A DNA stretch of 60,705 bases. Origin: Anaerolineae bacterium (lineage in GTDB: Bacteria > Chloroflexota > Anaerolineae > B4-G1 > SLSP01). The notes beneath the pieces are model-generated. The model searched no databases and was not told the DNA's origin. It saw only the letters and a program-made list of their open reading frames with translations. The DNA lies in the NCBI GenBank assembly GCA_025454475.1, contig JALOOJ010000003.1, forward strand, positions 1-60,705. Direction: 5' to 3'. The position numbers were made by a program, and so were the translations under genes. Shown here in pieces: positions 9,001 to 29,408 of the stretch. Each line of letters opens with the position of its first letter. Positions within the stretch are counted from its first letter, which is position 1.

Positions 9001-9096
9001 GCCTACAAGGTTATGCCTGCGACGGCCTATGAAATGTACTACCCCGACGTGTTCGGGCGCAGCGATGGAGGGCAGTTCATCGTTCTGGGGGAGTAG
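3079..9096 (+). CDS. Bacterial alpha-2-macroglobulin family lipoprotein with N-terminal Ig-like repeats
   Basis: AAGGAG RBS; lipobox VTLSC; repeated Ig-like units (FDQPMD, FSRPV, FNQPMD, FASPM); MG2 motif YTDRPIYRPGQTVYFKG; EYRKPEF; Gly-rich bait-like segment KGGGGGGED; LPDNLTTWR; thioester motif YPYECVEQ (7570-7581). Confidence 0.93.
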   Translation: MKRRTSLLMQILPVVVLFVTLSCRSGASPTPVPTTTPKPPTPVPYPPLPAPKLIYRTPAPYEPQALGEPVELVFDQPMDQQSVIRAFEIEPRVGGELAWGDARTLRFVPATAFDRGASYQVTIREAARNAEGEALLEPVAFEFQTVGFIEITEVQPIPDSEDVDADTAITIIFSRPVVPLTSVDRQNELPVPLTLDPPVAGKGEWLNTTIYRFYPEQGLAPATTYTARIPAGLEDTQGAVLVEPYTWIFSTIRPMPTIWSPPSNAQHIGPSEVISITFNQPMDHASTEAAFRLTVDGQPVNGAIRWTGGRTPIDDETLLFTPAQPLARNASADVSLAVSAKAHDSRITLSEDTTWGFWTVRDPAVVSTVPLDGERGVDPLNGVEITFASPMRTAAFLDYLTIVPNPTEVYSDWRESDTVLHLSFPKEAATRYRITLDANAPDRYGGTLNAPLSLAFTTGDLSPFASLNAPGSIGTFDAYTDTVIYARHRNITRLDVALYRLSLDTFMRLHGYGSWDYRSRFRPLATDLVRQWSVYPDAPRNTSALRGIDIVDAQGAQLPPGIYYLELSAPEVIARSDDARPEGFTLVRSATNLVLKQALTESLVWATDLASGEPLQGQPVRLYREGRPEGRGGTTDGNGLWLAEGLTDVDQWDDLFVVLGEPGDSAFAVAYNNWDSGISPWDFELNSEYGASRTIGYLYTDRPIYRPGQTVYFKGIVRQDDDADYTIPMAIRTLEVSVSDPQGRDLYRETLPVSDMGTLHGELLLGEEAPLGSYYIQVQDEAAEFFSGTSFRVAEYRKPEFEVTVETDKAAYLHGDAIRVTVQANYYFGGPVANAALTWNALSAPYTFQFQCPEGTSCPSYSWWDYDDGENYGEYYGSYGRLVANGATTTDAQGRATFRVSADIVEEISSRSFTIEASIADINGQEVSQRTTATVHRGDFYIGMTSERRVAQAGEAQRLGVLTVDWNSEPVGSMGLDVVVMERHWLSVREESEGGYAYWTWTTEDVPVYTTTTTTDRTGRAWISFTPEKSGTYRVRASGKDSAGNEVRSSTYLWVWGGGDVVWRRESTNRIDLVADRDLYQIGDVAEILIPSPYSGTVQALITIERGRILKTEVRELQGATEILRIPIVEDYAPNIFVSVILMQGSAQTPERLATFKMGEVMLPVSTETRALQVRLTPDRALQSGETYRPRGTATYDIRVTDSAGRPVVAELSLRLADLAVLALADDTGPTLMERFWSQRGLGVRTSTPLAVAMEIYNRELTPGIKGGGGGGEDDLGFVRTRFADTAFWAAVVKTDAEGRARVDVDLPDNLTTWRMQARAITADTLVGQSDVDIQTTLDLLVRPVLPRFFVVGDRAEIATIVHNNTANAAMTDVSIAVEGLSVDGETQQSVNIPAGEDAKVTWPVKALAGDHVTVRMEARAGSLFDGREDSLPLYAYATPESMATAGRLSGPELRQEVVQLPYDFDPTQGELTVQLDGSLTAAAQGALDYLEHYPYECVEQTVSRFLPNVLSYQALVEMGLPRPELQRSLTAQVSVALQRLYNEQHYDGGWGWWVSDTSDAYLTAYVLQGLVEAYRAGFTVDTDVVDRAVAYLREALPSITRDSPQSEANRLAYELYVLGEAIALIPSVEPAGELGRATALFRQRDQLGSYGKALLASAFGLLEPQEDSRVSTLLSDLSGDAVRSATGTHWEEAEPDYRNMTTDVRTTAIVLWALARHIPESESLPGAVRWLMDMRKEGHWESTHTTSWSLVALVAYMRATGELHGEYGYTVSLNGEQLLSGDVDAETIDETRQVQVEIADLLVDQANRLIIERQAPAGDQTGEGQLYYTANLRYFVPVETVRAIDRGIVVARQYSLVDTPDAAVSQAAVGDVIRVKVTVIAPTDLYYVTVEDPLPAGCEAVDVTLNTTSIVGEAPMVQNLTAQEADVWTRWYGWGWWWFSHTEMRDEKVTLFSTYLPRGTYEYTYVMRASVPGAYKVMPATAYEMYYPDVFGRSDGGQFIVLGE

Positions 9097-9118
9097 ATAC
9101 GATCATCGAGGAGGTGCT

Positions 9119-9988
9119 ATGGCGCAGCTGGGCCTACCTCAGCCCGAGATCAAGGTTGATGCATTCGCGCCTGCCGAAATGGCGGCAAGAGCCGAAGCCG
9201 CAGGTGTGAAGAGGACCACAGCCAGGGCGGCACAGCTCTTCGCCAAGGCGATCCTTGCCGGCGCCTTCATCAGCCTAGGCGGCATCTACAGCACCGTCGT
9301 TTTGGCTGGGACCAGCGCCTTGCCCTACGGCGTGCAGCGCCTGCTTGGCGGCTTGGTTTTCTGCCTGGGGCTCATTCTTGTCGTCGTAGGCGGCGCGGAA
9401 CTCTTCACCGGCAATGCCCTCATCGTCATGGCATGGGCGACCAGGAAGATCACGACGGCGCAGGTTCTGCGCAACTGGGCCATCGTCTACCTGGGGAACT
9501 TCGCGGGCTCCCTGGGAACGGCAGGGGTGATGTTCCTGAGCGAGCAGTACACCTTCGGCGGCGGCGCAGTAGGGCTCACCGCGCTGAGCATCGGCAACGG
9601 CAAATGCGCTCTGGGGTTCGTCGCCGCCGTGGCCCTGGGAATCATGTGCAATCTTCTGGTCTGTCTGGCTGTGTGGCTCTGCTTCTCGGCGCGGAGCACT
9701 ACGGATAAGATCCTGGCCGTCCTCTTCCCAATCTCCGCCTTCGTGGCTGCCGGGTTCGAGCACAGTGTCGCCAACATGTACTTCATCCCAGTCGCGTTGT
9801 TTATTAAGTCGGGCGCGGCGGATGACTTCTGGACCGCAATAGGCAAGAACGCGGGCGACTTCTCCACCCTAACCTGGGGCAACCTTTTTCTCAGAAACCT
9901 ATTGCCCGTCACCCTCGGCAACATCATTGGCGGCGCGCTGCTGGTGGGCGGCGCCTACTGGTTCATATACCTGCGAAAACAAGCCTGA
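9119..9988 (+). CDS. Formate/nitrite transporter (FNT) family channel
   Basis: GAGG RBS; motifs ELFTGN, GIMCNLLVCLAVW, GFEHSVANM, TLGNIIGG. Confidence 0.93.
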   Translation: MAQLGLPQPEIKVDAFAPAEMAARAEAAGVKRTTARAAQLFAKAILAGAFISLGGIYSTVVLAGTSALPYGVQRLLGGLVFCLGLILVVVGGAELFTGNALIVMAWATRKITTAQVLRNWAIVYLGNFAGSLGTAGVMFLSEQYTFGGGAVGLTALSIGNGKCALGFVAAVALGIMCNLLVCLAVWLCFSARSTTDKILAVLFPISAFVAAGFEHSVANMYFIPVALFIKSGAADDFWTAIGKNAGDFSTLTWGNLFLRNLLPVTLGNIIGGALLVGGAYWFIYLRKQA

Positions 9989-16789: not shown

Positions 16790-16965
16790 TCGTAGAGTCG
16801 CGCCGCCAGCTCAAACCCTAGCTGTAAGCGCGATTATTCACAATGTTATCTGGTTTTGGCGGAGCTTCAAGGGCTCAATGGCCTCGACAGTATGTCGGCA
16901 CAGACCCAGCCTCGCCGCCCAGGTGCCGTGCTCACGGAAGCTGCACGGCGCCCAGACTATAGCAT

Positions 16966-17020
16966 CAGAAGCCTCCGCGGCCTGGACGAATTGGTATTCG
17001 TCTCGCCACGGAGGCTTCTG
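16966..17020. other. Long intergenic hairpin downstream of hoxH
   Basis: Perfect 12-bp stem CAGAAGCCTCCG/CGGAGGCTTCTG enclosing inner stem GACGAA/TTCGTC. Confidence 0.65.
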
Positions 17021-17071
17021 TTGTCGCGTTACCTTGGCCTTTGAAGTGGGCCCGCGCCCAATCACGTGGCG

Positions 17072-18505
17072 CTAGTCGCGACGCAACGTGTCCAGGACCT
17101 CGCCATCCGGCCCCACCAACTCGATGTGTAAAGGCATCTGACCCATCGCGTGAGTCGAGCAGGAGAGGCACGGGTCATGGGCGCGGATTGCGCCCTCGAC
17201 ACGGTTCAGCATCCCTTCCTGGAGGTGGTTGCCATCTACGTAACGCCTGGCTACCATATTCACCGAATGATTCATCGCCCAGGCATTCCCGGCTGTCGCC
17301 ACGATCATATTGACTTTGGTGATCACGCCATTGTCATCGGTCCAGTAGTGATGGAACAGCGTACCACGCGGCGCCTCCAGAACGCCAACACCCTCGCCCG
17401 TGATCTGCCCGACCGGGTTGGTCACATCGTTGCCGAGGATATCGGGGTCGTCCATGAGTTCTCTCACCCGCTCAAGGGCGTAGACCGTCTCGATCAGTCG
17501 CGCATAGTGATAGTAGAGCGTTCCCTCGACTGGCTTCCCACCGTTAAGCGACTTCCAGATCTTCATCTCGCTCTGTGCGATCGGGGTGCTTATGTGACTC
17601 GCGGTGTTGAGGCGACCCAAAGGGCCAACGCGATAGACGCCGTCGGGATAGCCCCGCTTCTTGTAAAAAGGCGCCTTCAGATAGGTGTAATTGTTGACAT
17701 GCTCGCCAATGTAGTTGAGGTAGTCACTAGGATCAAACTCCTCAAGAAACGCGCCGTCAGAGTCCACCATCCGCAGATTGCCATGATAGAGCTCCAAGGC
17801 ACCATCGGCCTGAACCAGGCCCATATAGCCGCTGGGGAACACAGCGAACTCGTTGACCATCTCCGCGTGACCCATTGCCCAGTCCTTGAAGAACTCAAGG
17901 CCAACCTGAGTCGTAGCGATGTGCCGATCGAGCTCGCTCAGGATCCACTCGCGGTCCGCAGCGAGCAGCGGCTTGGTCACACCGCCGGGCACGCCGAAGA
18001 TCGGATGCACACGGCGCTCACCCAACAGCTTGATGATCTTCTGACCATAGGCACGGAGCTGCACAGCCTTCACTGCCAGATCCGGGTTCGCAGCGACGAT
18101 GCCACCGACGTGGCGAATCTTCGGATCTGCATCCCAACCCAACACAAAGTCCGGGCCGGCAAGCTCGAAGAAATGCATCCCGTGTGACTGGATGACCTGC
18201 CCCATATGCATCAGGTCACGCAGCTTGTGCGCAGTCGGCGTTGGGACGGTGCCAGCAACCACGTCACAGGCTTTCGTAGACGCCAGGTGGTGGCTAACGG
18301 GGCAGATGCCACACGTCCGGGGCGTGATTTGGGGCATTTCGTAGAACATCCGCCCCTCGCTGAACTTCTCAAACCCGCGGAATTGCTCAACATGAAACAG
18401 GGAATCCGCGACCTTTCCCTGATCGTCAAGGTAAATCGTGATCTTCGCATGACCCTCAATACGAGTCACCGGAGAGATTGTGATCTTCTGCGCGCTAACT
18501 GCCAT
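17072..18505 (-). CDS. hoxH: [NiFe] hydrogenase large subunit, group 3d (HoxH-like)
   Basis: VTRIEGH; L1 PRTCGICPVSH; EAPRGTLFHHY; L2 DPCLSCSTH followed by a 25-aa cleavable extension AMGQMPL... Confidence 0.92.
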   Translation of the reverse strand: MAVSAQKITISPVTRIEGHAKITIYLDDQGKVADSLFHVEQFRGFEKFSEGRMFYEMPQITPRTCGICPVSHHLASTKACDVVAGTVPTPTAHKLRDLMHMGQVIQSHGMHFFELAGPDFVLGWDADPKIRHVGGIVAANPDLAVKAVQLRAYGQKIIKLLGERRVHPIFGVPGGVTKPLLAADREWILSELDRHIATTQVGLEFFKDWAMGHAEMVNEFAVFPSGYMGLVQADGALELYHGNLRMVDSDGAFLEEFDPSDYLNYIGEHVNNYTYLKAPFYKKRGYPDGVYRVGPLGRLNTASHISTPIAQSEMKIWKSLNGGKPVEGTLYYHYARLIETVYALERVRELMDDPDILGNDVTNPVGQITGEGVGVLEAPRGTLFHHYWTDDNGVITKVNMIVATAGNAWAMNHSVNMVARRYVDGNHLQEGMLNRVEGAIRAHDPCLSCSTHAMGQMPLHIELVGPDGEVLDTLRRD

Positions 18506-18510
18506 ATTGG

Positions 18511-19068
18511 TTACCCTCCATCACTTCCGTACTTCAACACATTACCTTCCAGCTTGGGCATCCGGCCTTCCAACAATTCGGTCAAAACAAACCAGATGGC
18601 GTCGGCTGAGGGGGGGCAACCCGGCAGGTATATATCCACAGGAACCACATCGCCCACACCTGAGACCTGATCTGTAAGCGGCGTTAGCTCCTCATGGACA
18701 GGAATCTCACCATCGACGGTGCTCTCCGACTCGATATAGCCGCGGCGCAGGACCTCCTCCTTGTCGAAGAAGTTGCGCATCGTGCAGATCCCGCCAGTCA
18801 CCGCACAGTCACCCATAGCGATCAGGATCTTGCACCGCTCGCGCATCAGCTTGGCCTCGTGGATTTCGTCCTCGTTGCCAATTCCGCCAGTCAGGATCCC
18901 AACAACAACCCCCTCCTCCGGTGGATGCTTCATGTCAGTAATCGGCGAAGAACTGAGCTCAACATACTTCAGAAGCTCAACGATCCTCTCGTCGATATCC
19001 AGAAAGGACATGTGGCAGCCAGCACATGACTCAAGCCACTGTGTCGCAACAGTAATCTTCTCACCCAT
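18511..19068 (-). CDS. hoxY: [NiFe] hydrogenase small subunit (HoxY-like, single proximal cluster)
   Basis: WLESCAGCHMSFLD, MGDCAVTGG, YLPGCPP. Confidence 0.9.
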   Translation of the reverse strand: MGEKITVATQWLESCAGCHMSFLDIDERIVELLKYVELSSSPITDMKHPPEEGVVVGILTGGIGNEDEIHEAKLMRERCKILIAMGDCAVTGGICTMRNFFDKEEVLRRGYIESESTVDGEIPVHEELTPLTDQVSGVGDVVPVDIYLPGCPPSADAIWFVLTELLEGRMPKLEGNVLKYGSDGG

Positions 19069-19110: not shown

Positions 19111-20811
19111 TTATAACATAGCGGCAAGAGCTGAGAGCACTTCCGCGTCGTCCCGCACCGCTGCGGGTTTGGGCAGAACCTCTGCCACAGGTTTCACGAC
19201 ACCGGCATAGTCGGTAGTGTGACCCGTCCGTTCATACCACACCGGCGTCGGTAGAACGACATCGGCTCCCTCGACCAGTGGAGACAAGTAACTGGCCTGG
19301 ACTACGGTGAAGGCACCGTCGACCTTCGTCGTCAGGGCCTGATCCTCGCTCTGCTCGCCCAGTAGGAAGAACCGGGTCTGCGCACCGTTGGGCTCGGCAT
19401 GCTTCAGGCCCGCAGCGGTAGCGCCCCGCTCATTTCGCCCAGGGCTCAGTGCAAGCGTATAGAGCCGATCACCGAGATGGCGGAAGGCAGCTATCACCCT
19501 GCTCTTGATCCCCACGCTGTAGACCAACACGATCTTTTTGGCATCAGCCGCAGCCTTGGCAACCTGGTCGGCATCCGCATATGACACCGTCATTGTCGCC
19601 CGCTTAGTCAGGCTGTTCTCTGTATCAGCAATGACTGCAACGGTCGCACCATGATCCGCCGCCCGCTGAATAAAGTAACCCACCACGCGTTGATAATCGA
19701 GCGGCTGTGCGCCGGCGACTACGATGAAGTCGGCATCGAGAATGTCCGCGAGTTTCCCAGTCGTGCCATATCCCAACACCGGCGCAACGGGCTCCAACAG
19801 CCCCGCCTCTCCCTTCGCCTTGGCGAAGAGCCCCGCAAAGGCCTCGAGTGCCTCGTTGGTGGTAGCGCAGGTGGTCAAGCCCTGGACGCCGCCCGCCTTG
19901 AACCTGGCAGCCACCGTGCTCAGCGCCTCGTCCCATCCGGCCTCGACCAGCTTGCCGTCCTTGCGGACCAGCGGGCTGGTGACTCGTTTGCGCTCCTCAT
20001 ACAACGGGGCGAAGCGCCCGTCAACACAGAGGAGGCCGTCGTTGGGCTCGGAGCCCCAGATGCCATCGACACGAAGTAGACGGTTGTAGCGCGTCACTAC
20101 GTCCAGAGCACATCCAACGCTGCACTGCATGCAGGTCGTCTCCGTATGAACGACATCTTTCTCGCGACCGCCATAGGCGCTGCGAGCATCGATCAGGGCT
20201 CCGGTAGGACAGACCTGCAAACACGTCCCGCACTCCACACAGCTTGACTCACCGAACGGCACATCCAGATCAGCCATGATCATAGAATCCGCACCGCGCG
20301 CGCGCACATCAAGGGTGTGATTGGCCACAATCTCCGAGCATGCTCGAACACAACGCGTGCAGAGGATGCAGCGGTTGTGGTCCATGATGAAGTACTTGCG
20401 AGACGCATCGACGCTCAGCTTCTGGTAAGGCCGCGGATAGGTGAAGTGATCCAGCCCATAGCGATAGGCAGCATCCTGCAACTCGCAGTCGCCGCTCATC
20501 TGACAGAACATGCAGTAGTGGTTGCGTTCGGAGAAGAGGAGTTCCAGAACGAACTTCCGCACATCGACCGCAGCCGTCGTTTCGGTCTGAACCTCCATAC
20601 CATCTGCGATGGGGCAGGTACAGGCCGTCTGCAGGCCACGCATGCCTTTGACCTCAACCACGCACATGCGGCAGGCGCCCCATGCCGATAATGCTGGATG
20701 GGAGCAGAGAACAGGAATATCAACGCCCGCAGCCTGTGCGGCTTCCAAAATCGTCTGACCGCTCAGCCCCGTTACGGGCTGATTGTTGATCGTGAGTCGC
20801 ACCTCGCTCAT
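19111..20811 (-). CDS. Extended HoxU / NuoG-HydA-like iron-sulfur subunit (no H-cluster, no Mo site)
   Basis: AAGGAGG RBS; [2Fe-2S] LC..GACRMC..AC; HYCMFC...C; CILCTRCVRAC and CVECGTCLQVCPTGAL; extra CMQCSVGC...C; shortened molybdopterin-oxidoreductase-like C-terminus. Confidence 0.88.
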   Translation of the reverse strand: MSEVRLTINNQPVTGLSGQTILEAAQAAGVDIPVLCSHPALSAWGACRMCVVEVKGMRGLQTACTCPIADGMEVQTETTAAVDVRKFVLELLFSERNHYCMFCQMSGDCELQDAAYRYGLDHFTYPRPYQKLSVDASRKYFIMDHNRCILCTRCVRACSEIVANHTLDVRARGADSMIMADLDVPFGESSCVECGTCLQVCPTGALIDARSAYGGREKDVVHTETTCMQCSVGCALDVVTRYNRLLRVDGIWGSEPNDGLLCVDGRFAPLYEERKRVTSPLVRKDGKLVEAGWDEALSTVAARFKAGGVQGLTTCATTNEALEAFAGLFAKAKGEAGLLEPVAPVLGYGTTGKLADILDADFIVVAGAQPLDYQRVVGYFIQRAADHGATVAVIADTENSLTKRATMTVSYADADQVAKAAADAKKIVLVYSVGIKSRVIAAFRHLGDRLYTLALSPGRNERGATAAGLKHAEPNGAQTRFFLLGEQSEDQALTTKVDGAFTVVQASYLSPLVEGADVVLPTPVWYERTGHTTDYAGVVKPVAEVLPKPAAVRDDAEVLSALAAML

Positions 20812-20915
20812 AAGTGCTTGCCTCCTTGGGCACATTCTATAGGTTTGGCTAACCCTCAGGCAGTCGGCGCGGGTCCGGGATGATAGCCGGGCCGCGGACC
20901 GTCCGTCGAGGCGTG

Positions 20916-22499
20916 CTAGTCCCGCAATCGGGACTCGAATTCGCTGCGGAAATACTGCAACCCAGTGAGGATCGGAACTGGGGCAGCTTGCCCCAGGCCA
21001 CAGAAAGAAGCCTGCTGGACGTAGGTTGCGATCTCCTCCAGCCGTTCCAGATCGGCGCGGCGTGCCATGCCCTTACGCAGACGGTCCAGCGCCTCAAGCA
21101 TCTGCGCTGTGCCGACACGGCAGGGCGTGCATTTGCCACACGACTCGGTCTTGAAGAAACGGACCAGGACGTAGGCCAAGTCGACAATGTCGGTGTCCTC
21201 GTCACAGACAAGCAACGCGCCACTGCCAAGGCCCACACCCTTCTCCCGCATTGACGCGAAATCCATCGGCACATCCAGGAGCTCCGCCGGGATGATCGTG
21301 CCGGACGACCCACCTGTCTGCGCCGCCTTGAAGGCCTTACCGCCCTTCATGCCACCGCCGTAGATGCCGATGATCTCCCGCAGTGTTGTGCCCATGGGCG
21401 CCTCTACCAGGCCACTGAGCGCCACATCGCCCAACATCGTATAGACTTTCGTCCCCGGACTCCGCTCCGTCCCGATCGCTCGGAACCAGTCGGCGCCATT
21501 GAGAATGATCGGGGCGATGTTCGCCAGGGTCTCGACGTTGTTCACGACGGTAGGTTTGCCACGAAATCCGTATACCGTGGGGTACGGTGGACGGATACGC
21601 GGTATTCCACGCTCGCCCTCCAGGCTGTTGAGCAGCGCCGTCTCCTCGCCGCAGACGTAAGCGCCGGCGCCGGCGTGAACATGCACGTGGAACGAAAAGC
21701 TCGTGCCCATAATGTTGTCGCCAAGGAGGTTTAGCTCCTCAGCCGCGGTGATGGCGTGGTTGAGGATGTCCTTGGCCATCGCGTATTCGCCACGGATGTA
21801 GATCCAACCCTCGCTCGCTCCCACTGCGTAGCCTGCTAGCGCCATGCCTTCCAGCACCGCATGGGGATCACCTTCGACGATCAGCCGATCCTTGAAGGTG
21901 CCCGGCTCCGACTCATCCGCATTACACACAATGTACCGCGGCGACTCGGGCTGCTGCGCCACAAAGGTCCACTTCAGACCGGTGGGAAACCCGGCGCCGC
22001 CACGACCCTGAAGCCCGGAGGATTTGACGGTGTCAAGCACCTCGCCGGGCGTCATGCTCGTAAGCGCCTTGCCTAGCGCGAAGTAGCCATCATAAGCAAT
22101 ATACTCATCAATGCTGTAGGGATCGATCGTGCCGGCGCGTTTGAGCACCACACGCTTTTGGGCATAGAGCGTATCCTCTGCCACGCCGAGCGTATCGATC
22201 TCAGCAGACGCCACCTCCGCAGACACCAAGAGATGCTCAACCTTACGTCCTTTGTAGAGGTGTTCGCTGACGATAGTGGCGCCGGTCTCAGGCGACACCG
22301 GGCCATAGACGATGCCCTCTGGATAGACAACTACGACAGGCAGCACATCCGTACGGTTGACGCGGCCCGTATACCCTACCCGTACCTCATCCTCAAGTCC
22401 GTAGAAGGCGAGCTCGGCCTCGATCGCAAGACGGGTGTCCTCGGCGCCTCGCGACAAACTGATGGGATCTCCAGACACCAGAACCGTCGAGCGGATCAT
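20916..22499 (-). CDS. NuoF/HoxF-like flavoprotein, non-bifurcating-type signature
   Basis: [55 protein letters not shown]; no C-terminal ferredoxin domain. Confidence 0.92.
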   Translation of the reverse strand: MIRSTVLVSGDPISLSRGAEDTRLAIEAELAFYGLEDEVRVGYTGRVNRTDVLPVVVVYPEGIVYGPVSPETGATIVSEHLYKGRKVEHLLVSAEVASAEIDTLGVAEDTLYAQKRVVLKRAGTIDPYSIDEYIAYDGYFALGKALTSMTPGEVLDTVKSSGLQGRGGAGFPTGLKWTFVAQQPESPRYIVCNADESEPGTFKDRLIVEGDPHAVLEGMALAGYAVGASEGWIYIRGEYAMAKDILNHAITAAEELNLLGDNIMGTSFSFHVHVHAGAGAYVCGEETALLNSLEGERGIPRIRPPYPTVYGFRGKPTVVNNVETLANIAPIILNGADWFRAIGTERSPGTKVYTMLGDVALSGLVEAPMGTTLREIIGIYGGGMKGGKAFKAAQTGGSSGTIIPAELLDVPMDFASMREKGVGLGSGALLVCDEDTDIVDLAYVLVRFFKTESCGKCTPCRVGTAQMLEALDRLRKGMARRADLERLEEIATYVQQASFCGLGQAAPVPILTGLQYFRSEFESRLRD

Positions 22500-22981
22500 A
22501 CAATGCCTCCCGATCTTTCCTCGCCTCGGTAGCGAGCGATGATCTCACGGACCTTCTGCGGGTCCAGGTTGCCATGAATGTCGCTATCGACCATCATCAC
22601 CGGTCCCACTGCACAGGCGCCGATGCAACTGGTAGTCAGCAAGGACCATTCGCCGTCCAGGGAAGTCGCACCGAAAGGAATTCCAAGCTCGTGCTCCAGT
22701 GCCTCCCAGACTTGCTGCCCTCCCACAACATGGCACGGGGCATCTTGGCAGAAACGCACTACATGCTTACCGAGAGGCTCGAGGCTAATCAAACTGTAGA
22801 AGCTCGCGACGCTGTAGACCTTGCTCAGCGGCAAGCTCAAACGGCTGGCAATCCTCTGCATCTGCTCTCGGCTCAGATGTCCACTTACCTCGTTGACCTC
22901 TCTCAGAATCTCAACAAGAGCCTCCTGGTCAGCACCGTGGACATCAATGATGCCGTCGGTTGTGGCTAAGACGTCTTCCAT
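22496..22981 (-). CDS. NuoE/HoxE-like [2Fe-2S] subunit
   Basis: VASFYS, FCQDAPCHVVG, SCIGACAVGP. Confidence 0.92.
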   Translation of the reverse strand: MEDVLATTDGIIDVHGADQEALVEILREVNEVSGHLSREQMQRIASRLSLPLSKVYSVASFYSLISLEPLGKHVVRFCQDAPCHVVGGQQVWEALEHELGIPFGATSLDGEWSLLTTSCIGACAVGPVMMVDSDIHGNLDPQKVREIIARYRGEERSGGIV

Positions 22982-23076: not shown

Positions 23077-24837
23077 TTACTCGACGCTGACAGCATTGAC
23101 CGGGCAGACCTGGGCACAAATGCCGCAGCGGATGCAGATCTCAGGATCGATCACGTGCGGCTGCCGCGCTATCCCGGTGATGGCGTTGACGGGGCAGTTG
23201 CGCGCGCAGCGCGTGCAGCCGATGCAGGTCTCCGGGTCGATTTTGTACTCGATGAGTGCTCGGCAGACCTTCGCGGGGCACCTCTTGTCGTAGATGTGGG
23301 CCTCGTACTCCTCGCGGAAGTTCTCGATCATGCTTAGGACGGGATTGGGGGCTCCTTGCCCCAGCCCACAGAGTGAGCCAATCTTTACAGACCGTCCCAG
23401 AGTCTCCAGAGCTTCGATGTCGCCCGGCTTACCCTTGCCCGCGCAGATGGCCTCGAGGATGTCCAACATCTTGCGCGTTCCCACGCGGCACGGAACGCAC
23501 TTACCACAGGACTCCTCCTGCGCAAACTCCATGAAGAACCGGGCCATATCGACCATACAGGTCTCTTCATCCATGACGATGAAACCACCAGAGCCCATCG
23601 CGGAGCCCACCGAAGCCAGCGACTCGTAATCCACCGGCATATCAAGGTGTTTCTCGGGAATACAGCCGCCAAGAGGCCCACCGGTCTGGACCGCCTTGAA
23701 TGCTTTGTCATTCAGGACACCGCCGCCGACATCGTACACGATCTCGCGGACCGTGATGCCGAGCGGCACCTCGATCAGACCAGTGCGCTTGACCTTACCG
23801 GCAATGGCGAAGGTCTTGGTACCCTTGCTCTTCTCGGTACCCATTGCGGCGAACCACGCCCCGCCGTTCAGCAGAATCTGGGGGACGTTAGCGTAGGTCT
23901 CGACATTGTTGATATTCGTGGGCTTGCCCCAGAGACCCGACGTCGCCGGGAAGGGAGGACGCGTACGGGGCTGTCCACGGTTACCCTGAACCGACTCCAT
24001 CAGTGCGGTCTCCTCGCCACAGACGAAGGCGCCGGCACCCATCCGGACCTCGAGATCAAAGCAGAAACCGGTCCCGAAGATATCCTTGCCCAGTAGGCCA
24101 TACTCGCGGGCCTGCTCAATCGCAACACGCAGAGTACGAATGGCGATAGGGTACTCCGCCCGGACGTAGAGGTAGCCCTGGGTGGCCCCGATGACGTAGG
24201 CGGCGATCGCCATTCCCTCGAGGACCGAGTGCGGATCACCCTCGAGCACACGGCGATTCATAAACGCGCCGGGATCGCCCTCATCGCCGTTGCAGACCAC
24301 GTATTTCTGATCACCTGGCGCGTTGCGGGCGAAGGTCCATTTCATCCAGGCGGGGAAACCCGCGCCTCCCCGGCCGCGCAATGCCGAGGTCTTGAGTTCT
24401 GCGAGTACACCATCCGGCGTCATCTCGGTCAAGACCTTGCCAAGCGCAGCGTAACCATCCTGAGCGATATAGTCGTCAATGCTCTCCGGGTTTATGACGC
24501 CAACGTTTCGCAGGACGACCCGCACTTCCTTGGTCGAAGGCTCGTCCAAAGGCTCAACGGCCTGCTCTTGCACCATCAGGTTCTGGACAGGGCGTCCTTT
24601 CAGCAGGTGTTCTGTAGCCACCAGACGCGCATTGTCCGGAGTGAGGTCCCGATAGTGGACGCCGTCAGGATAGACGATCGCCTCGATGCTTGGCGTCGCT
24701 ACCGTCAAATCCGTTGCCGCCAGAACCTCAATCTCATTGCTGAGGCCCAAGAGGCCAATCTCATCCAACAGCGCTACCGTGACAGGCTGCGCCTGCTGGG
24801 GATCTCCGCTGATGATCACATGTGCGCGATATGCCAT
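23077..24837 (-). CDS. HydB/HndC-like flavoprotein, bifurcating-type signature
   Basis: [62 protein letters not shown]-terminal 2x[4Fe-4S] [12 protein letters not shown] / [12 protein letters not shown]. Confidence 0.93.
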
Positions 24838-24870: not shown

Positions 24871-25230
24871 TTACTTCCTGACTTGCCACTTGGCGACAGG
24901 CACACCGCCGACTACGTGTCCATCGATGAGCTCCGGCACGCGTCCGACGTCGATCTTGCCATAGGTGACCATGTCCGATTCGCCAACCTGGATCTGGACA
25001 ATCGGCTCGAACTCACACAGACCGATGCATCCGGTCTGGGTCACAACCACGTCCGTAATGGACCGACTCTCCAGTTCACTTAGGATCGCGGTCATGGTGT
25101 CTCGCGCGCCGGCCGCAATGCCACACGTGCCCATCGCCACGACGACCCGCGCCCGCGAGCCCTCGCCGGACAGCTTCCGCCGCTGGAGCGCTCGCTCCTT
25201 GATTTTCTGCAGTTCCTCCAAGCTTTTCAT
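24871..25230 (-). CDS. Thioredoxin-like [2Fe-2S] ferredoxin (HydD/HndB-like)
   Basis: VAMGTCGIAAGA and QTGCIGLCEFEP. Confidence 0.88.
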   Translation of the reverse strand: MKSLEELQKIKERALQRRKLSGEGSRARVVVAMGTCGIAAGARDTMTAILSELESRSITDVVVTQTGCIGLCEFEPIVQIQVGESDMVTYGKIDVGRVPELIDGHVVGGVPVAKWQVRK

Positions 25231-25268: not shown

Positions 25269-25835
25269 TCAGGGCAAAGCTTCACTCCCGATGGAAGCTA
25301 GCCCCTCGCCAATAGTGCCGCGCACAAAGGCAAAAACCTCCGGGTCCGAGAGCGAGACCTCAGGTCCCAGAATCTCGCGAAACTCTCGCGTGTCGAGCAC
25401 GAAGGTCCTATCTGCAACCTTGTGCTGGTAGACTAGATCAATCATAGGATTACCCACGATGATGCACAGTAGCGTCCCGTTCAGATCCCCAAGAGGGGGG
25501 CGATCGATGTGGCTGAGTTGCAGCGTCGCTCGGGTCGTGGTTCCCTGTCCCAATGCAGAGGTGATCTCGAACGTTCCACCGCACATTTCAGCAGTCTGCT
25601 TGAGAAAGGGGATGCCGAGGCCGACCTTGCGCGTCGTCCGCGTCGTAACCCACGGGTCTGCGATATGCCGAAGCATATCGGCATCCATTCCCCGACCATC
25701 ATCCCCGATGGCGATCGACAACTGGTCGTCTACCGGATTCTCATCGATGTCAATGTGCAGCAACGTTGCACTTGCGGTAACGCTGTTCTCAGCGATATCG
25801 AGAATATGCTGAGAGAGGTCCCGGAAAACGGTCAT
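25269..25835 (-). CDS. Stand-alone HATPase_c (histidine-kinase-like ATP-binding) protein
   Basis: HILDIAENS (N box), DDGRGM (G1), TTRTTRKVGLGIPF (G2), GQGT; no transmitter His domain. Confidence 0.88.
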   Translation of the reverse strand: MTVFRDLSQHILDIAENSVTASATLLHIDIDENPVDDQLSIAIGDDGRGMDADMLRHIADPWVTTRTTRKVGLGIPFLKQTAEMCGGTFEITSALGQGTTTRATLQLSHIDRPPLGDLNGTLLCIIVGNPMIDLVYQHKVADRTFVLDTREFREILGPEVSLSDPEVFAFVRGTIGEGLASIGSEALP

Positions 25836-26335
25836 TCGTACTTACGCAGGGCCTTCGCCACGTCCTGGGGCTGCACGCGTCCGACCACGTCGTCGTCGAT
25901 CATGACCACCGGAGCCTGCGAACACGCGCCAACACAGCGGCAGGTCTCCAATGTGAACCGGTTGTCCTCCGTAGTCTCACCCACTTCTACGCCAAGGACC
26001 TGCTGCAGTTTTTCGACCAGCGAAGGCCCTCCACGTACGTAGCAGGCCGTGCCGAGGCAAATACTTACCTTGTGACGCCCAATCGGAGCCATGCGGAAGA
26101 ACGAGTAGAAGGTCAGCACACCGTAGATGTGGCTCAGAGGGATCCCCATGCTATCGGCGATATAGCGCTGCATAGGCGGAGACACGTATCCCAGCCGCTC
26201 CTGGGTCAGGGTCAGGACCACCATCGTCGCGCCAGGTCGGCCGCGGTTCTCCTCAAGGATCCGGTCCAGTTCCACCTTCTCCTCTGATGAAAGCTCCAGA
26301 ATTGTTGGGGTCGCTCGTTCTGTCGCTAAAGTCAT
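25832..26335 (-). CDS. NuoE-like [2Fe-2S] subunit (HydC/HndA-like)
   Basis: GAGGTG RBS before ATG 26335; TFYSFF, ICLGTACYVRG, RCVGACSQAP. Confidence 0.92.
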   Translation of the reverse strand: MTLATERATPTILELSSEEKVELDRILEENRGRPGATMVVLTLTQERLGYVSPPMQRYIADSMGIPLSHIYGVLTFYSFFRMAPIGRHKVSICLGTACYVRGGPSLVEKLQQVLGVEVGETTEDNRFTLETCRCVGACSQAPVVMIDDDVVGRVQPQDVAKALRKYE

Positions 26336-26514
26336 ACGTCTCACCTCGGTATCGGAGATAGAATCTAGGTTGCGCATCTCCCCGGATGGCAGGCTCTGTG
26401 CACAGTGCGCACGACTGCTCGCACCTGAGTCTGAAGCCCGTATACGAGTCTGGGATGACCTAATGGTACACCCTACTGCGAGACCGGTCACGGGCATGTG
26501 ACAGGCCAGATGTG

Positions 26515-26520
26515 ATTATA
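26515..26520 (-). promoter_or_regulatory. Candidate sigma-70 -10 box for the hydrogenase structural operon
   Basis: TATAAT on minus strand in the PHP-hydC intergenic gap; no clear -35. Confidence 0.45.
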
Positions 26521-26603
26521 CCGTCGTTTTACAAAAGCTACAGTGACATTCACCACGCGATTGCTCGTCGATGCGCCACTCAATGCCATGCGCGAAAGGT
26601 GAT

Positions 26604-27350
26604 CTACGGGACGTAGGCGCGCTGCCCACTCTCCCCGCACAGGGCCTGCCTCAAAGCGCCAACCGATGGCGTGTCGTCCAGTTGGAAGATAGTCATCGTC
26701 GTCCCCATCCACTCCAGCCAATGCGCGTCTGAGCTGCTGATGAGGGTCAGGGCCGGCGGCAGAGTTGAGAACTGTCGTCGCGCCTCGCTTGGGCGCATAT
26801 TTGGTGAGAGCTCGGCCGCATCGGCCTCCAAGTCAGGGGGCCAGATACCCAACGTCCGCATCAACCCATTGTGCTGCCGATCGATGTGCGCCGGGATGAC
26901 CAGGCCCCCAAGGGCGTGCACCTCTCGCGCAGCATCCTCCAGTCCCATGGTCGTCGGCGCCTGCAGTAATCGCGGATCCTCCCCAACAAAGTTGCCCTCC
27001 CGGTCCACGACGAACTGCGGGCCGAAGCGGTCGACATCATTGAGCAGCGGCGGAATCGTGGCGTCTACCGCCCGCTGCCATGCCTCTAAGGCAAGCTGTG
27101 AATCGAAGATACACAGCAGATCGACCTCCTCGCGCGTCTGCAGCTCCATCCCTACGAGAACGGTCAATCCCGTAGCCGTTGCGGCCTCGCGCACCGCCAA
27201 CGCATTGCCGGTGGCATTGTGATCGGTAATGGCAATGATGTCGAGACCCCTGGACAGAGCTTCGTCCACGATCAGGGGCGGGATCATCTCCACCTCGGCG
27301 CACGCCGACAGCGCCGTGTGAATGTGCAGATCGGCCCGGTACTCCCGCAT
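26604..27350 (-). CDS. PHP domain (polymerase/histidinol phosphatase-like) protein
   Basis: DLHIHT..SAC, ITDHN, GMELQT.EEV, IPAHIDR, SSDAH. Confidence 0.9.
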   Translation of the reverse strand: MREYRADLHIHTALSACAEVEMIPPLIVDEALSRGLDIIAITDHNATGNALAVREAATATGLTVLVGMELQTREEVDLLCIFDSQLALEAWQRAVDATIPPLLNDVDRFGPQFVVDREGNFVGEDPRLLQAPTTMGLEDAAREVHALGGLVIPAHIDRQHNGLMRTLGIWPPDLEADAAELSPNMRPSEARRQFSTLPPALTLISSSDAHWLEWMGTTMTIFQLDDTPSVGALRQALCGESGQRAYVP

Positions 27351-27368
27351 GCCCTATCCCGCCATGTC

Positions 27369-27701
27369 TCAGACACCCAGCGAAATGAGCTGCGCCACGC
27401 TTTCGTAGACCGGGTCTGGGCTCGAGAGAACCGGCATCCCCTGTTCCTCAGCCTTCTCAAGGGTGCCCTCAGGGACATTCGCGCCTTCAGCGACAACAAT
27501 CGCGCACACGCCCAGAAGCGAAGCGACTGCAACGATATTGGCGTGTGTCTGAAGCGTTAGCCACAGGTCACCGGCCTCCGCGCCCGCCATCACACAACTC
27601 AACAGATCGGCTACATAGCCGCCATTGACTTCGGCATCAAGACCGCCGGCTCCCCCCAGCACACGCCATCCCAGTTGCTCAACGACGTCGCGAACCTTCA
27701 T
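27369..27701 (-). CDS. DRTGG domain protein
   Basis: AGGAG RBS; GGYVADLLSCVM, WLTLQTH.NIVAVA. Confidence 0.85.
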   Translation of the reverse strand: MKVRDVVEQLGWRVLGGAGGLDAEVNGGYVADLLSCVMAGAEAGDLWLTLQTHANIVAVASLLGVCAIVVAEGANVPEGTLEKAEEQGMPVLSSPDPVYESVAQLISLGV

Positions 27702-27748
27702 TCCACCAGCTCCTGTCGTGGCCAACGTAAGTACCGCGTTTGTGCACC

Positions 27749-28726
27749 TCAGCCCGCATCCTGCTCGCCGATCTCTTGGGGCGAGACGCTGAAGGTCATG
27801 AGCACGCGTGTTCCAACGCCAACAGCCGACCAGATACTCAGCTTATCCGTACAGCGCTCAATGTTGGTGAGCCCCATACCGGCACCGAAGCCCATTTCCC
27901 GAACCTCTGGCGTTGCCGTTGACCAGCCCGGCTGGCGGGCAAGGCCCACATCGGCAATGCCGGGACCTGAGTCCTGGGCAACGATCGTGATCTCGTTGGG
28001 CTGAATGTCCGCGAGGATCATCCCGCCATTGTGCGTGTGAATGATGAGGTTGACCTCGGCCTCGTACGTGGCAATCGCTACGCGGCGCGCCAACTGAGGC
28101 GATGCGCCGATCTGAAGTAGCGCCCTCTTGATTTTCGCGGAGGCGTCGCCACCCCGGGCAAAGTCGCCCTTCTCGACACGATAGCGCAGTTGCAGGCTGG
28201 TGCTCTCAGATTCCAGGGCATCGAAGAACCGCTGTGGGCGTGCTTGGTAGGCCTCCGCCTCCGTGTAGAGCTCCTGAAGCGCATCAAGGAGAGCCAGTGT
28301 GATATCGCCGCGCGTGACCATACCGACAAGTTCATGCCGGGCGTTCAGGACGGGCATACGTCCAATGCCGGTTTTCTCGAAGCGGCGCAGAGCCTCCATG
28401 ACCGACTCCTGCGCATGGGCGGTCACGAGGTTCGAGCTTGTCATGAACTCCCGTATTGGAGCATCCAACCGCTGGACCTCAAGCGCGTGGATCAGGTCCT
28501 CGATGCTGACGATGCCCACAAGCGCCTGATCCTCCACCACCGGGAGGCCCGAGATACGGTGTTCCCGCAGGAGTTCCTTCAACTGTTGCATCGTCGCGTC
28601 CGGGGGGAGCGTGAAGACTGAGGCCGTCATCACCCTTGAGACCGGCATTTCGCGCACGAGCTCATGGATCTTGGTGAGTGCACCCCCTCTTCCCATAGAC
28701 CCCAGAAGTGCGAACTGTCGTTTCAT
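27749..28726 (-). CDS. CBS-pair fused to RsbT/SpoIIAB-like Ser/Thr kinase (anti-sigma-type) domain
   Basis: Two CBS motifs (RISGLPVV...GIVS; GIGRMPV...GMVT) then AIATYEAEVN, DSGPGI, GFGAGMGL.NI; start may be 28696. Confidence 0.87.
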   Translation of the reverse strand: MKRQFALLGSMGRGGALTKIHELVREMPVSRVMTASVFTLPPDATMQQLKELLREHRISGLPVVEDQALVGIVSIEDLIHALEVQRLDAPIREFMTSSNLVTAHAQESVMEALRRFEKTGIGRMPVLNARHELVGMVTRGDITLALLDALQELYTEAEAYQARPQRFFDALESESTSLQLRYRVEKGDFARGGDASAKIKRALLQIGASPQLARRVAIATYEAEVNLIIHTHNGGMILADIQPNEITIVAQDSGPGIADVGLARQPGWSTATPEVREMGFGAGMGLTNIERCTDKLSIWSAVGVGTRVLMTFSVSPQEIGEQDAG

Positions 28727-28808
28727 CGTTCCAGGTCTCTCGGCCGATACTTTGATGAACTAGGGCCTGCGGTCCTGACCCTGATGCGTCGCAGGCCGCC
28801 GGCGCCAC

Positions 28809-29171
28809 CTACTGGCGAATGATCGGCAGTTGCCCAAGTCCCTTCAGCCCTGCAGCATACAAGAGCCCGGCGGCCTCAAACATCGTGTAGCGGCACAGCA
28901 GAACACCGATACCCATCTCCTCGGCAAGCGACAAGGTCTCTGCCGGAGGGTACTTGCCTCGCACGAACATCACGGCAGGCGCCTCTGCCATGTCAGCGGT
29001 TCGGATGGCCTGCGGATTGGTGAGCCCTGTCACGAGGAGCATGTTAGGCTTGGTGAACAGCAGGACATCACTCATCAGGTCAGAGGCGCACGCAGACTCA
29101 AAGTCTACGGTGAACGGAAGCTCAACAAGGACCTCCGCATCGGCTGCTTCAAGGATCTCGTCCAGTGTCAT
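28809..29171 (-). CDS. DRTGG domain protein
   Basis: GGAGGT RBS before ATG 29171; ASDLMSDVL, LVTGLTNPQAIRTA, VMFVRGK. Confidence 0.87.
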   Translation of the reverse strand: MTLDEILEAADAEVLVELPFTVDFESACASDLMSDVLLFTKPNMLLVTGLTNPQAIRTADMAEAPAVMFVRGKYPPAETLSLAEEMGIGVLLCRYTMFEAAGLLYAAGLKGLGQLPIIRQ

Positions 29172-29337
29172 CCAGTTTACCTCCACCATACACCCGCTCG
29201 GCCTGGCGCAAGTCCAGACGCCCGCGCACCTGTACAGCCATACCGTGAGCACATTCCGGGGACACGCCGTGGTAGGGACTATGCCACTCCCTATGGGGCA
29301 TCGCACAACTGCCAAGCCTGATAACCAGCTGGATAGT

Positions 29338-29343
29338 ATCATA
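29338..29343 (-). promoter_or_regulatory. Candidate -10 box for the DRTGG/CBS-kinase/PHP operon
   Basis: TATGAT on minus strand in the divergent intergenic region. Confidence 0.35.
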
Positions 29344-29408
29344 AAGTATGCGGCTGTCCAGTCGTGACCGTGAATCCAGGAGAGCTTGCCTGACCGTGCG
29401 AGATGGCC

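Follow-up and report, generated by a model that had tools for sequence, protein, structure and literature searches.

A CBS-fused kinase in place of a HydS-like sensor: a variant cassette that accompanies Bfu-type flavin modules in Anaerolineae and other bacteria

Bfu-type bifurcating enzymes set the balance of H2, formate, and NADH/ferredoxin in many anaerobes, and to our knowledge their regulation is unexplained. Spectroscopic work has described the group D "sensory" hydrogenases, and we know of no signalling partner or output shown for them. Here we analyse a stretch of 60,705 nt, hereafter the window, from an Anaerolineae bacterium (contig JALOOJ010000003.1 of assembly GCA_025454475.1), in which a cassette of four genes precedes the operon of a [NiFe] hydrogenase. 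The cassette encodes a stand-alone DRTGG-domain protein (DRTGG1), a HATPase_c_2 kinase fused to a pair of CBS domains (the CBS-kinase), a second DRTGG protein (DRTGG2), and a PHP phosphoesterase. Our literature searches found no description of the cassette or of the CBS-kinase.

The closest described relative of the cassette is the one that contains TamHydS of Thermoanaerobacter mathranii, a group D (M2e) putative sensory [FeFe] hydrogenase (Land et al. 2020, PMC8163306). Cassettes of this type, like that of the window, place DRTGG, a small HATPase_c_2 kinase, a further component, DRTGG, and PHP directly before hydC-HATPase-hydD-hydB, and their DRTGG, kinase, and PHP proteins are homologous to ours (e.g., locus L103 of Thermoanaerobacter thermocopriae). 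The window differs in three ways: the HydS-like gene is gone from the locus and from the genome, the kinase has gained an N-terminal CBS pair, and the downstream enzyme is a [NiFe] hydrogenase with two flavin modules. The closest relative of that enzyme is the NiFe-HydABCSL of Acetomicrobium mobile, whose operon was published as hydC-hisK-hydD-hydB-hydA-hydS-hydL-hydP (Feng et al. 2022, PMC8880783; Schut et al. 2022, PMC9304861). The occurrence of hydC-HATPase-hydD-hydB on a [NiFe] enzyme is thus already known. A hisK-like HATPase and hydD occupy matching positions in the two operons, and HydB, HydA, and HydL of the window find their best Protein Data Bank (PDB) matches in the A. mobile enzyme, of which HydD is not a holoenzyme component (PMC9304861). 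The window differs from A. mobile in its additional NuoEF pair and in its shorter HydA. No upstream cassette is described in the A. mobile papers (PMC8880783, PMC9304861). Acetomicrobium relatives of that enzyme (L177, L183) do carry one, but of the HydS type and with a kinase lacking CBS domains.

Two other systems share part of this design. In partner switching, the antagonist gene is followed by the kinase gene (rsbV-rsbW, spoIIAA-spoIIAB), and as in the window there is a HATPase_c_2 kinase, a small partner gene immediately 5' of it, and a hydrolase in the unit. The window has DRTGG instead of STAS, PHP instead of a PP2C phosphatase, and no linked sigma factor. The family II CBS-pyrophosphatases (CBS-PPases; 3l2b/3l31), the CBS ligands of which are adenine nucleotides and Ap4A, also use a CBS pair and a DRTGG domain together, and DRTGG1 superposes on the latter (TM about 0.7). 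In the window, however, CBS and DRTGG belong to different proteins, and a protein-kinase-type ATPase takes the place of the pyrophosphatase as effector.

Exchange of a HydS-like sensor for a CBS pair

The gene map was drawn from an open reading frame (ORF) listing and Pfam searches of the window, where the genes of interest are all on the minus strand. Read 5' to 3' on that strand, the order is DRTGG1, CBS-CBS-HATPase_c_2, DRTGG2, PHP, hydC, a standalone HATPase, hydD, hydB, and a second NuoE/NuoF pair. DRTGG1 (28809-29171, 120 aa) and DRTGG2 (27369-27725) score 19.5 and 22.6 bits against the Pfam DRTGG domain, in both cases below the curated cut-off. DRTGG2 also has weak matches to PucR and to the HPr-kinase N-domain and, judged from homologues, probably starts at the ATG at 27701. 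The kinase (27749-28726, 325 aa) contains two CBS domains (E 2.7e-29) and HATPase_c_2 (PF13581, E 1.3e-8), and the metal-dependent phosphoesterase (26604-27350, 248 aa) matches PHP (E 1.1e-8). An earlier reading of the sequence alone (the sequence-only reading) had placed such a four-gene cassette before hydC-HATPase-hydD-hydB, and its coordinates and domain calls are correct. It had also stated that neither an [FeFe] HydA nor a HydS-like gene is present. This holds beyond the locus: the window has no HydS-like ORF, the gap between the kinase and DRTGG2 measuring 23-47 nt, and Fe_hyd_lg_C (PF02906) has no match in the entire genome of the window (4.8 Mb, 95.7% complete). The order DRTGG, HATPase_c_2 kinase, DRTGG, PHP before hydC-HATPase-hydD-hydB is otherwise that of the group D HydS-type cassette.

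We compared the window with three sets of 80 loci, recruited respectively by the CBS-kinase, by the HydB of A. mobile, and by its HydL, and annotated the ORFs of these loci by BLAST against the window proteins, an [FeFe] H-domain, and the "Fe-S protein" of the canonical cassette. The HydB query drew mostly [FeFe] and formate dehydrogenase (Fdh) relatives, and the HydL query reached Acetomicrobium spp. at 88-89% identity. Of 38 cassettes with a small kinase lacking CBS domains (136-176 aa), 36 have a HydS-like gene of 415-485 aa after the kinase gene. Pfam resolves the product of the HydS-like gene into two Fer4 domains, Fe_hyd_lg_C, and the FeS domain PF04060, and by this domain content the "Fe-S protein" of the canonical cassette is a HydS-like protein, built like TamHydS, a putative sensory [FeFe] hydrogenase of group D / M2e. 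An [FeFe] HydA lies downstream in 27 plain-kinase loci. Hence, the arrangement of DRTGG, kinase, Fe-S protein, DRTGG, and PHP before multimeric [FeFe] hydrogenases, which the sequence-only reading had cited as established, does exist.

The HydS-like gene is absent from 71 of the 72 cassettes with a CBS-kinase. Over 110 cassettes the two states are therefore almost mutually exclusive, in agreement with the proposal that the missing HydS-like gene is matched by a CBS pair on the kinase. The sole exception is a locus of Dictyoglomaceae (L065), which has the CBS-kinase and the HydS-like gene together. In this locus (L065:9624-13645), the CBS-fused kinase, the HydS-like gene, and an extra DRTGG gene make up an apparent intermediate of the two cassette types. 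The CBS-kinases also cluster in the kinase-domain tree, where the CBS label needs 3 changes as opposed to 31.6 when labels are shuffled. A main clade of 63 CBS-kinases includes Chloroflexota, Planctomycetota, Ignavibacteriota, Hydrogenedentota, Thermodesulfobacteriota, and one entry with the label Deltaproteobacteria (classed under Myxococcota); a second clade includes Thermotogota, Caldisericota, and Aminicenantes. The CBS-kinases form a large family, in which each of the best 120 database clusters (59-100% identity) combines CBS and HATPase_c_2, and the named ones are mostly labelled Anaerolineae.

The exchange of the sensor for a CBS pair is thus real. The gene order recurs in dozens of loci of other genomes, so the arrangement in the window is not due to chance. 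It represents a widespread variant of the known HydS-type cassette, undescribed in the papers searched, and is neither a one-off nor a misplaced [FeFe] accessory set. That a CBS pair on the kinase itself has taken the place of a metallo-sensor implicates the kinase as receiver of the input, and it suggests that one switch can respond to either H2/redox or a nucleotide. The CBS variant also offers an oxygen-insensitive and easily expressed set of proteins for work on the pathway in vitro. Cultured carriers include Leptolinea tardivitalis YMTK-2, Leptolinea sp. HRD-7, and Athalassotoga saccharophila.

Flavin module and catalytic partners

Among the loci that were not selected through the kinase, 64 have both the cassette and the standalone HATPase and 30 have neither. 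Five are discordant (1 and 4), at least two of which are truncated. Because the co-occurrence is so tight, we assign the unexplained "hisK" of the A. mobile operon, the counterpart of this HATPase, to the system of the cassette. The unit that travels together consists of the cassette, the "hisK" HATPase, and the HydBC (Bfu-type) flavin module, and its partner subunit varies: [FeFe], [NiFe], FdhA-like, nuoABCD, and HdrA-like partners are all found. The layout of the window, with a cassette lacking the HydS-like sensor, two flavin modules, and HydA-S-L, is present in 31 of the 80 HydL-centred loci. Among these are L. tardivitalis YMTK-2 and Leptolinea sp. HRD-7, in both of which a full-length CBS-kinase lies directly upstream.

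Other partners occur in close relatives of the window as well as in distant ones. In L009 (kinase 83% identical to ours), L004, L008, and the other Anaerolineae loci L024 and L029, a subunit of 906-919 aa stands in the HydA position, and in L009 and L024 Pfam identifies it as a full FdhA-like molybdopterin subunit. No close HydL was found in any of the five genomes. All five loci retain the cassette and both flavin modules, the catalytic module having been exchanged between close lineages. In a Thermodesulfobacteriota locus (L053:9612-18353), nuoA, B, C, and D lie between the CBS-kinase and DRTGG2 and are followed by PHP-HATPase-HydC-HydD-HydB; here the cassette is embedded in a complex-I-like Bfu operon. 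The partners are HdrA-like in L060 and L069, and the Thermotogota loci L061, L062, and L110 end after HydB, with no catalytic partner encoded alongside. Conversely, three Synergistaceae loci (L177, L178, and L183) have a HydS-type cassette, with a kinase lacking CBS domains, before NiFe-HydABCSL. Two of these are Acetomicrobium spp. (L177, L183), with a HydL 88-89% identical to that of A. mobile.

These data change the view of the locus as an [FeFe]-type accessory set displaced onto a [NiFe] enzyme, since the cassette follows the HydC-HATPase-HydD-HydB flavin module, whichever the catalytic subunit. Surveyed against hydrogenase class, the CBS-kinases show no class specificity and occur with [NiFe], FdhA-like, [FeFe], and nuoABCD partners. 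The suggestion that the cassette chooses between two flavin modules gained no specific support either, because enzymes with a single flavin module (L242, L035, L047) also carry the cassette; L242, from the HydL-centred set, has it in the CBS form. Two simpler rules were considered and rejected. A CBS-kinase specific for [NiFe] enzymes is contradicted by the close relatives with FdhA-like subunits and no HydL, by an [FeFe] partner in L157, and by nuoABCD in L053. The converse rule, taken from a first tally, that a plain kinase never accompanies a [NiFe] enzyme fails on the HydS-type cassettes of the Synergistaceae [NiFe] operons.

The constancy of the flavin module is what would be expected if the cassette served maturation, with the two GHKL ATPases, the DRTGG proteins, HydD, and PHP loading FMN or Fe-S clusters into HydB/HydC or assembling these subunits. 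That the cassette tracks the flavin module and not the catalytic subunit fits this explanation, as does the PHP fold, the nearest relatives of which are nucleotide and nucleic-acid phosphoesterases. However, cassette and HATPase are both missing from at least 30 HydBC loci, so that neither is generally needed for assembly. In addition, what varies between cassettes is a sensor-type protein, either HydS-like or a CBS pair, as is typical of signalling, and the kinase belongs to a protein-kinase / anti-sigma family. We consider a role in maturation quite unlikely.

The cassette is not always linked to the enzyme. In the Anaerolineales genome CAZCTC01, a complete CBS cassette (L010/L256, G018:C17) lies on a different contig from the hydC-...-hydL operon (L189, contig 54) and adjoins an L,D-transpeptidase gene. 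This suggests that the cassette can act in trans. In Anaerolinea thermolimosa, the cassette and hydC are located 280 kb away from HydA-S-L.

Protein features and candidate mechanism

We lean towards reading the cassette as a sensor-kinase module that regulates the Bfu flavin module or its expression, and in which the CBS pair replaces the HydS-like sensor as input. The CBS pair would bind an adenosine-containing ligand (AMP, ADP, ATP, or else Ap4A, SAM, or c-di-AMP) and gate the kinase in cis, in lieu of the H2/redox input that the HydS-like sensor would give in trans. The kinase would then bind, and probably phosphorylate, DRTGG1 and/or DRTGG2 on the serine of a DL(M/L)S motif, the PHP enzyme would reset the system, and the output would act either post-translationally on the HydC/HATPase/HydD/HydB module or on a promoter-like element before hydC (P2, see below). 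The kinase has the features that this reading demands. Its residues 205-310 match the anti-sigma F factor SpoIIAB (1til, 1th8; E about 3e-6). The N, G1, and G2 boxes of the ATP-binding site (E222-N226, D252-x-G-x-G, and G279-L286) are at least 95% conserved across 64 members of the family, and so is the ribose/phosphate-binding motif G-h-x-S/T-x-x-D of both CBS domains. In the window this motif reads GIVSIEDL and GMVTRGDI, with G71, G135, T138, and D141 among the positions conserved at 95% or more (n=64). Together these motifs fit an active ATPase/kinase gated by a ligand that, judging from the motifs, would be of the adenosine type. The standalone HATPase, for its part, consists of an ATP-binding domain only. 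Its PDB matches are confined to the ATP-binding domains of histidine kinases, and neither Pfam nor the PDB comparison revealed a HisKA domain in it.

The DRTGG proteins are the candidate substrates. The sequence-only reading had pointed to a serine in a DL(M/L)S motif, and the motif is real: D31 and S34 of the DLMS of DRTGG1, together with G49 and Q54, are invariant in an alignment of 65 sequences from both cassette types, and the DLLS of DRTGG2 is at least 80% conserved in 80 sequences. An AF2 model of DRTGG1 (pLDDT 96.5) puts S34 at the N-terminus (N-cap) of a predicted helix, 33-38. Searched with Foldseek, this model matches the DRTGG protein AF1212 (2ioj, TM 0.81), the DRTGG domain of a CBS-pyrophosphatase (3l2b, TM about 0.7), and the N-domain of HPr kinase. 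Because the model matches DRTGG structures, the weak Pfam calls can be regarded as secure. The idea that DRTGG1 is a cryptic STAS domain was rejected, the modelled fold being that of DRTGG / HPr-kinase N-domains, with no STAS protein among the 50 matches listed. The cassette genes are the only two DRTGG genes in the genome of the window. DRTGG1 is the likeliest direct partner of the kinase because its gene is always directly upstream, with an overlap of 4 nt in several relatives and frequent translational coupling, and because the pair of DRTGG1 and CBS-kinase also occurs without DRTGG2 and PHP (L046, L048, L050, L066, L068).

Some of these pairs have a setting of their own. In L046, L048, L050, and L054 (also L037, L040, and L042), DRTGG1 and the CBS-kinase, without DRTGG2 and PHP, directly adjoin another pair of [NiFe] small and large subunits. 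A protease and a histidine-kinase-like protein of 375-394 aa come next in L048, L050, and L054; in L046 only the kinase-like protein is found, by eye with a GAF-type N-terminus. Such loci may represent a [NiFe]-based sensory unit.

The PHP protein retains, by alignment of 61 sequences, the full metal site: D43, H44, E69, H155, D208, and H210 are invariant, and D7, H9, and H11 are at least 90% conserved. Its AF2 model (pLDDT 98) has EndoQ (5zb8, TM 0.7) as top Foldseek match, followed by TM0559, BAD_1165, RNase AM, and Cv1693, all within ranks 1-17. The similarity to the pAp phosphatase Cv1693 (2yb1) is weak in sequence and clear in fold. Another explanation is a nucleotide-messenger loop: PHP would make or destroy an adenosine nucleotide (pAp, ApnA, or a linear or cyclic dinucleotide) that is read by the CBS pair, and the DRTGG proteins would be ligand-binding or dimerising adaptors and not phospho-acceptors. 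The similarity of PHP to Cv1693 and RNase AM is in its favour. So is the presence of 3l2b among the best fold matches of DRTGG1, given that CBS and DRTGG cooperate in nucleotide-regulated CBS-PPases (PMC11172384). Nevertheless, PHP and both DRTGG genes are equally present in HydS-type cassettes without CBS domains, and their role therefore cannot depend on the CBS pair. We regard such a loop as very unlikely.

Several observations count against the sensor-kinase module itself. None of the approximately 240 loci encodes a sigma factor or a DNA-binding gene. The usual substrate class of SpoIIAB/RsbW kinases is missing, because no STAS protein appears among the 50 Foldseek matches listed for the DRTGG1 model, and the invariant serine of DRTGG may instead bind a ligand or have a structural role. 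CpsB/YwqE (2wjd, 3qy8), which are PHP protein phosphatases, rank only 41-44 among the matches of the PHP model (E 6e-3 to 1e-2, TM about 0.35). A role as protein phosphatase is possible for PHP, and the modelled fold does not favour it. Finally, some pairs of DRTGG1 and CBS-kinase lie beside unrelated genes (L010, L066, L068), which means that the target may differ from the flavin module in some lineages.

A more specific scheme is partner switching without STAS. Here the CBS-gated, SpoIIAB-like kinase would phosphorylate the DRTGG serine, PHP would dephosphorylate it, and the phospho-state would switch HydBC on or off via the HATPase and HydD. We rate this scheme as unlikely. If it were true, adenylate status, or H2 in the HydS-type version, would directly gate bifurcation in hydrogenases, formate dehydrogenases, and other Bfu enzymes.

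The output could also be transcriptional, and two promoter-like sites on the minus strand bear on this. A consensus scan places P1 upstream of DRTGG1, at 29333-29360 (TGGACA, 16 nt, TACTAT, with TG before the -10). The same block, TGGACA...TGATA(C/G)TAT, precedes DRTGG1 in L002 and L009, and more loosely in L003, and P1 is probably the cassette's own promoter. P2, at 26506-26549 in the gap between PHP and hydC, consists of TGTCAC, 22 nt, TATAAT, 7 nt, and TGG. The 60.7 kb window has a single copy of this pattern, and 7 relatives (L001-L004, L008, L009, L011) have it at the same intergenic position; TGTCA, TATA.T, and TGG are invariant there and the rest of the PHP-hydC gap is unconserved. P2 resembles a regulated internal promoter whose upstream element is unusual. 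The gap, about 270 nt in the window, is the longest of the operon in most relatives. A terminator scan of the cluster gave no minus-strand site, including between P1 and P2, which is a weak hint of read-through and fits either one or two transcripts. A scan of 9-31 kb, spanning the long leaders after P1 and P2, revealed no Rfam family. Taken together, P1, P2, the PHP-hydC gap, and the unlinked cassette suggest that there are two transcription units, between which read-through may occur, and that the cassette is able to act in trans. Separate expression would not alone argue against a regulatory role of the cassette.

P2 is the proposed point of action in a further explanation, in which the kinase would sequester a sigma factor or regulator encoded elsewhere, the DRTGG proteins would be its antagonists, and the output would be transcription from P2. 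The HATPase_c_2 / SpoIIAB similarity of the kinase speaks for such anti-sigma control, as do the conserved TGTCAC of P2 at a non-standard 22-nt spacing from a perfect TATAAT, the order of antagonist and kinase genes, which resembles rsbV-rsbW and spoIIAA-spoIIAB, and the transcriptional regulator that adjoins TamHydS (Land et al., PMC8163306). Yet in every locus examined the cassette lacks a sigma factor or DNA-binding gene within or beside it, DRTGG is not STAS-like, and the near-perfect co-occurrence with a second ATPase and the flavin genes fits a target at the protein level at least as well. We think control of this kind, too, unlikely.

Downstream enzyme and neighbouring genes

Downstream of the cassette, HydC is a NuoE-like [2Fe-2S] subunit (25832-26335). 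Its ORF is open from 26497, and the start probably lies near 26335, as judged from homologues of 166-170 aa. The standalone HATPase_c gene, the "hisK" of the A. mobile operon (25269-25835, 188 aa), overlaps the hydC stop by 4 nt. HydD (24871-25230), a small thioredoxin-like [2Fe-2S] ferredoxin-fold protein, has a weak Pfam match and a position that is conserved across loci. HydB/BfuB (23077-24837) resembles NuoF and carries two [4Fe-4S] domains at its C-terminus. It is followed by the second NuoE/NuoF pair (22496-22981 and 20916-22499), which has no C-terminal ferredoxin domain and is conserved after HydB in Anaerolineae loci. Further 3' are the NuoG-like HydA without H-cluster (19111-20835), the [NiFe] small subunit HydS (18511-19068), the large subunit HydL (17072-18505), a protease, and hypA, B, F, D, and E.

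All these subunits were called by Pfam, and PDB comparison links the enzyme to 7t2r/7t30, the electron-bifurcating NiFe-HydABCSL of A. mobile. HydB (7t2r_B, NiFe hydrogenase subunit B; E 1e-237, full length), HydA (7t2r_A, E 1e-89, N-terminal 340 residues only), and HydL (7t2r_D, E 1.7e-172) have their best PDB matches there, and HydC has 7t2r_C as second best, behind the [FeFe] HydC 7q4v_C; the second NuoE/NuoF pair also has PDB matches. The gene content of the NiFe-HydABCSL type is complete, with a BfuB-type HydB, HydC, a HydA without H-cluster, and group 3 small and large subunits. By this gene content, the enzyme of the window is of the NiFe-HydABCSL type and a predicted Bfu-type electron-bifurcating [NiFe] hydrogenase. 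Its HydA retains a truncated molybdopterin domain.

A second [NiFe] hydrogenase is encoded on a 5.3 kb contig (C250 of genome G000; L175:2914-5089). Its large subunit is split over two frames (3836-4573 and ~4826-5089), suggesting either a frameshift or a fault in the assembly. Upstream of DRTGG1, a divergent gene reads by eye as a histidyl-tRNA synthetase. At the other end of the cluster, a formate/nitrite transporter gene of the FocA type (8990-9988, plus strand) abuts the hyp genes; the sister genomes pair the flavin modules with an FdhA-like subunit. A gap of 282 nt after hydL (16790-17071) contains no CBS-pair gene in the window. Eight Anaerolineae relatives (L196, L206, L207, L209, L223, L228, L236, and L243) have stand-alone CBS-pair genes (about 148 aa) flanking the protease gene right after hydL.

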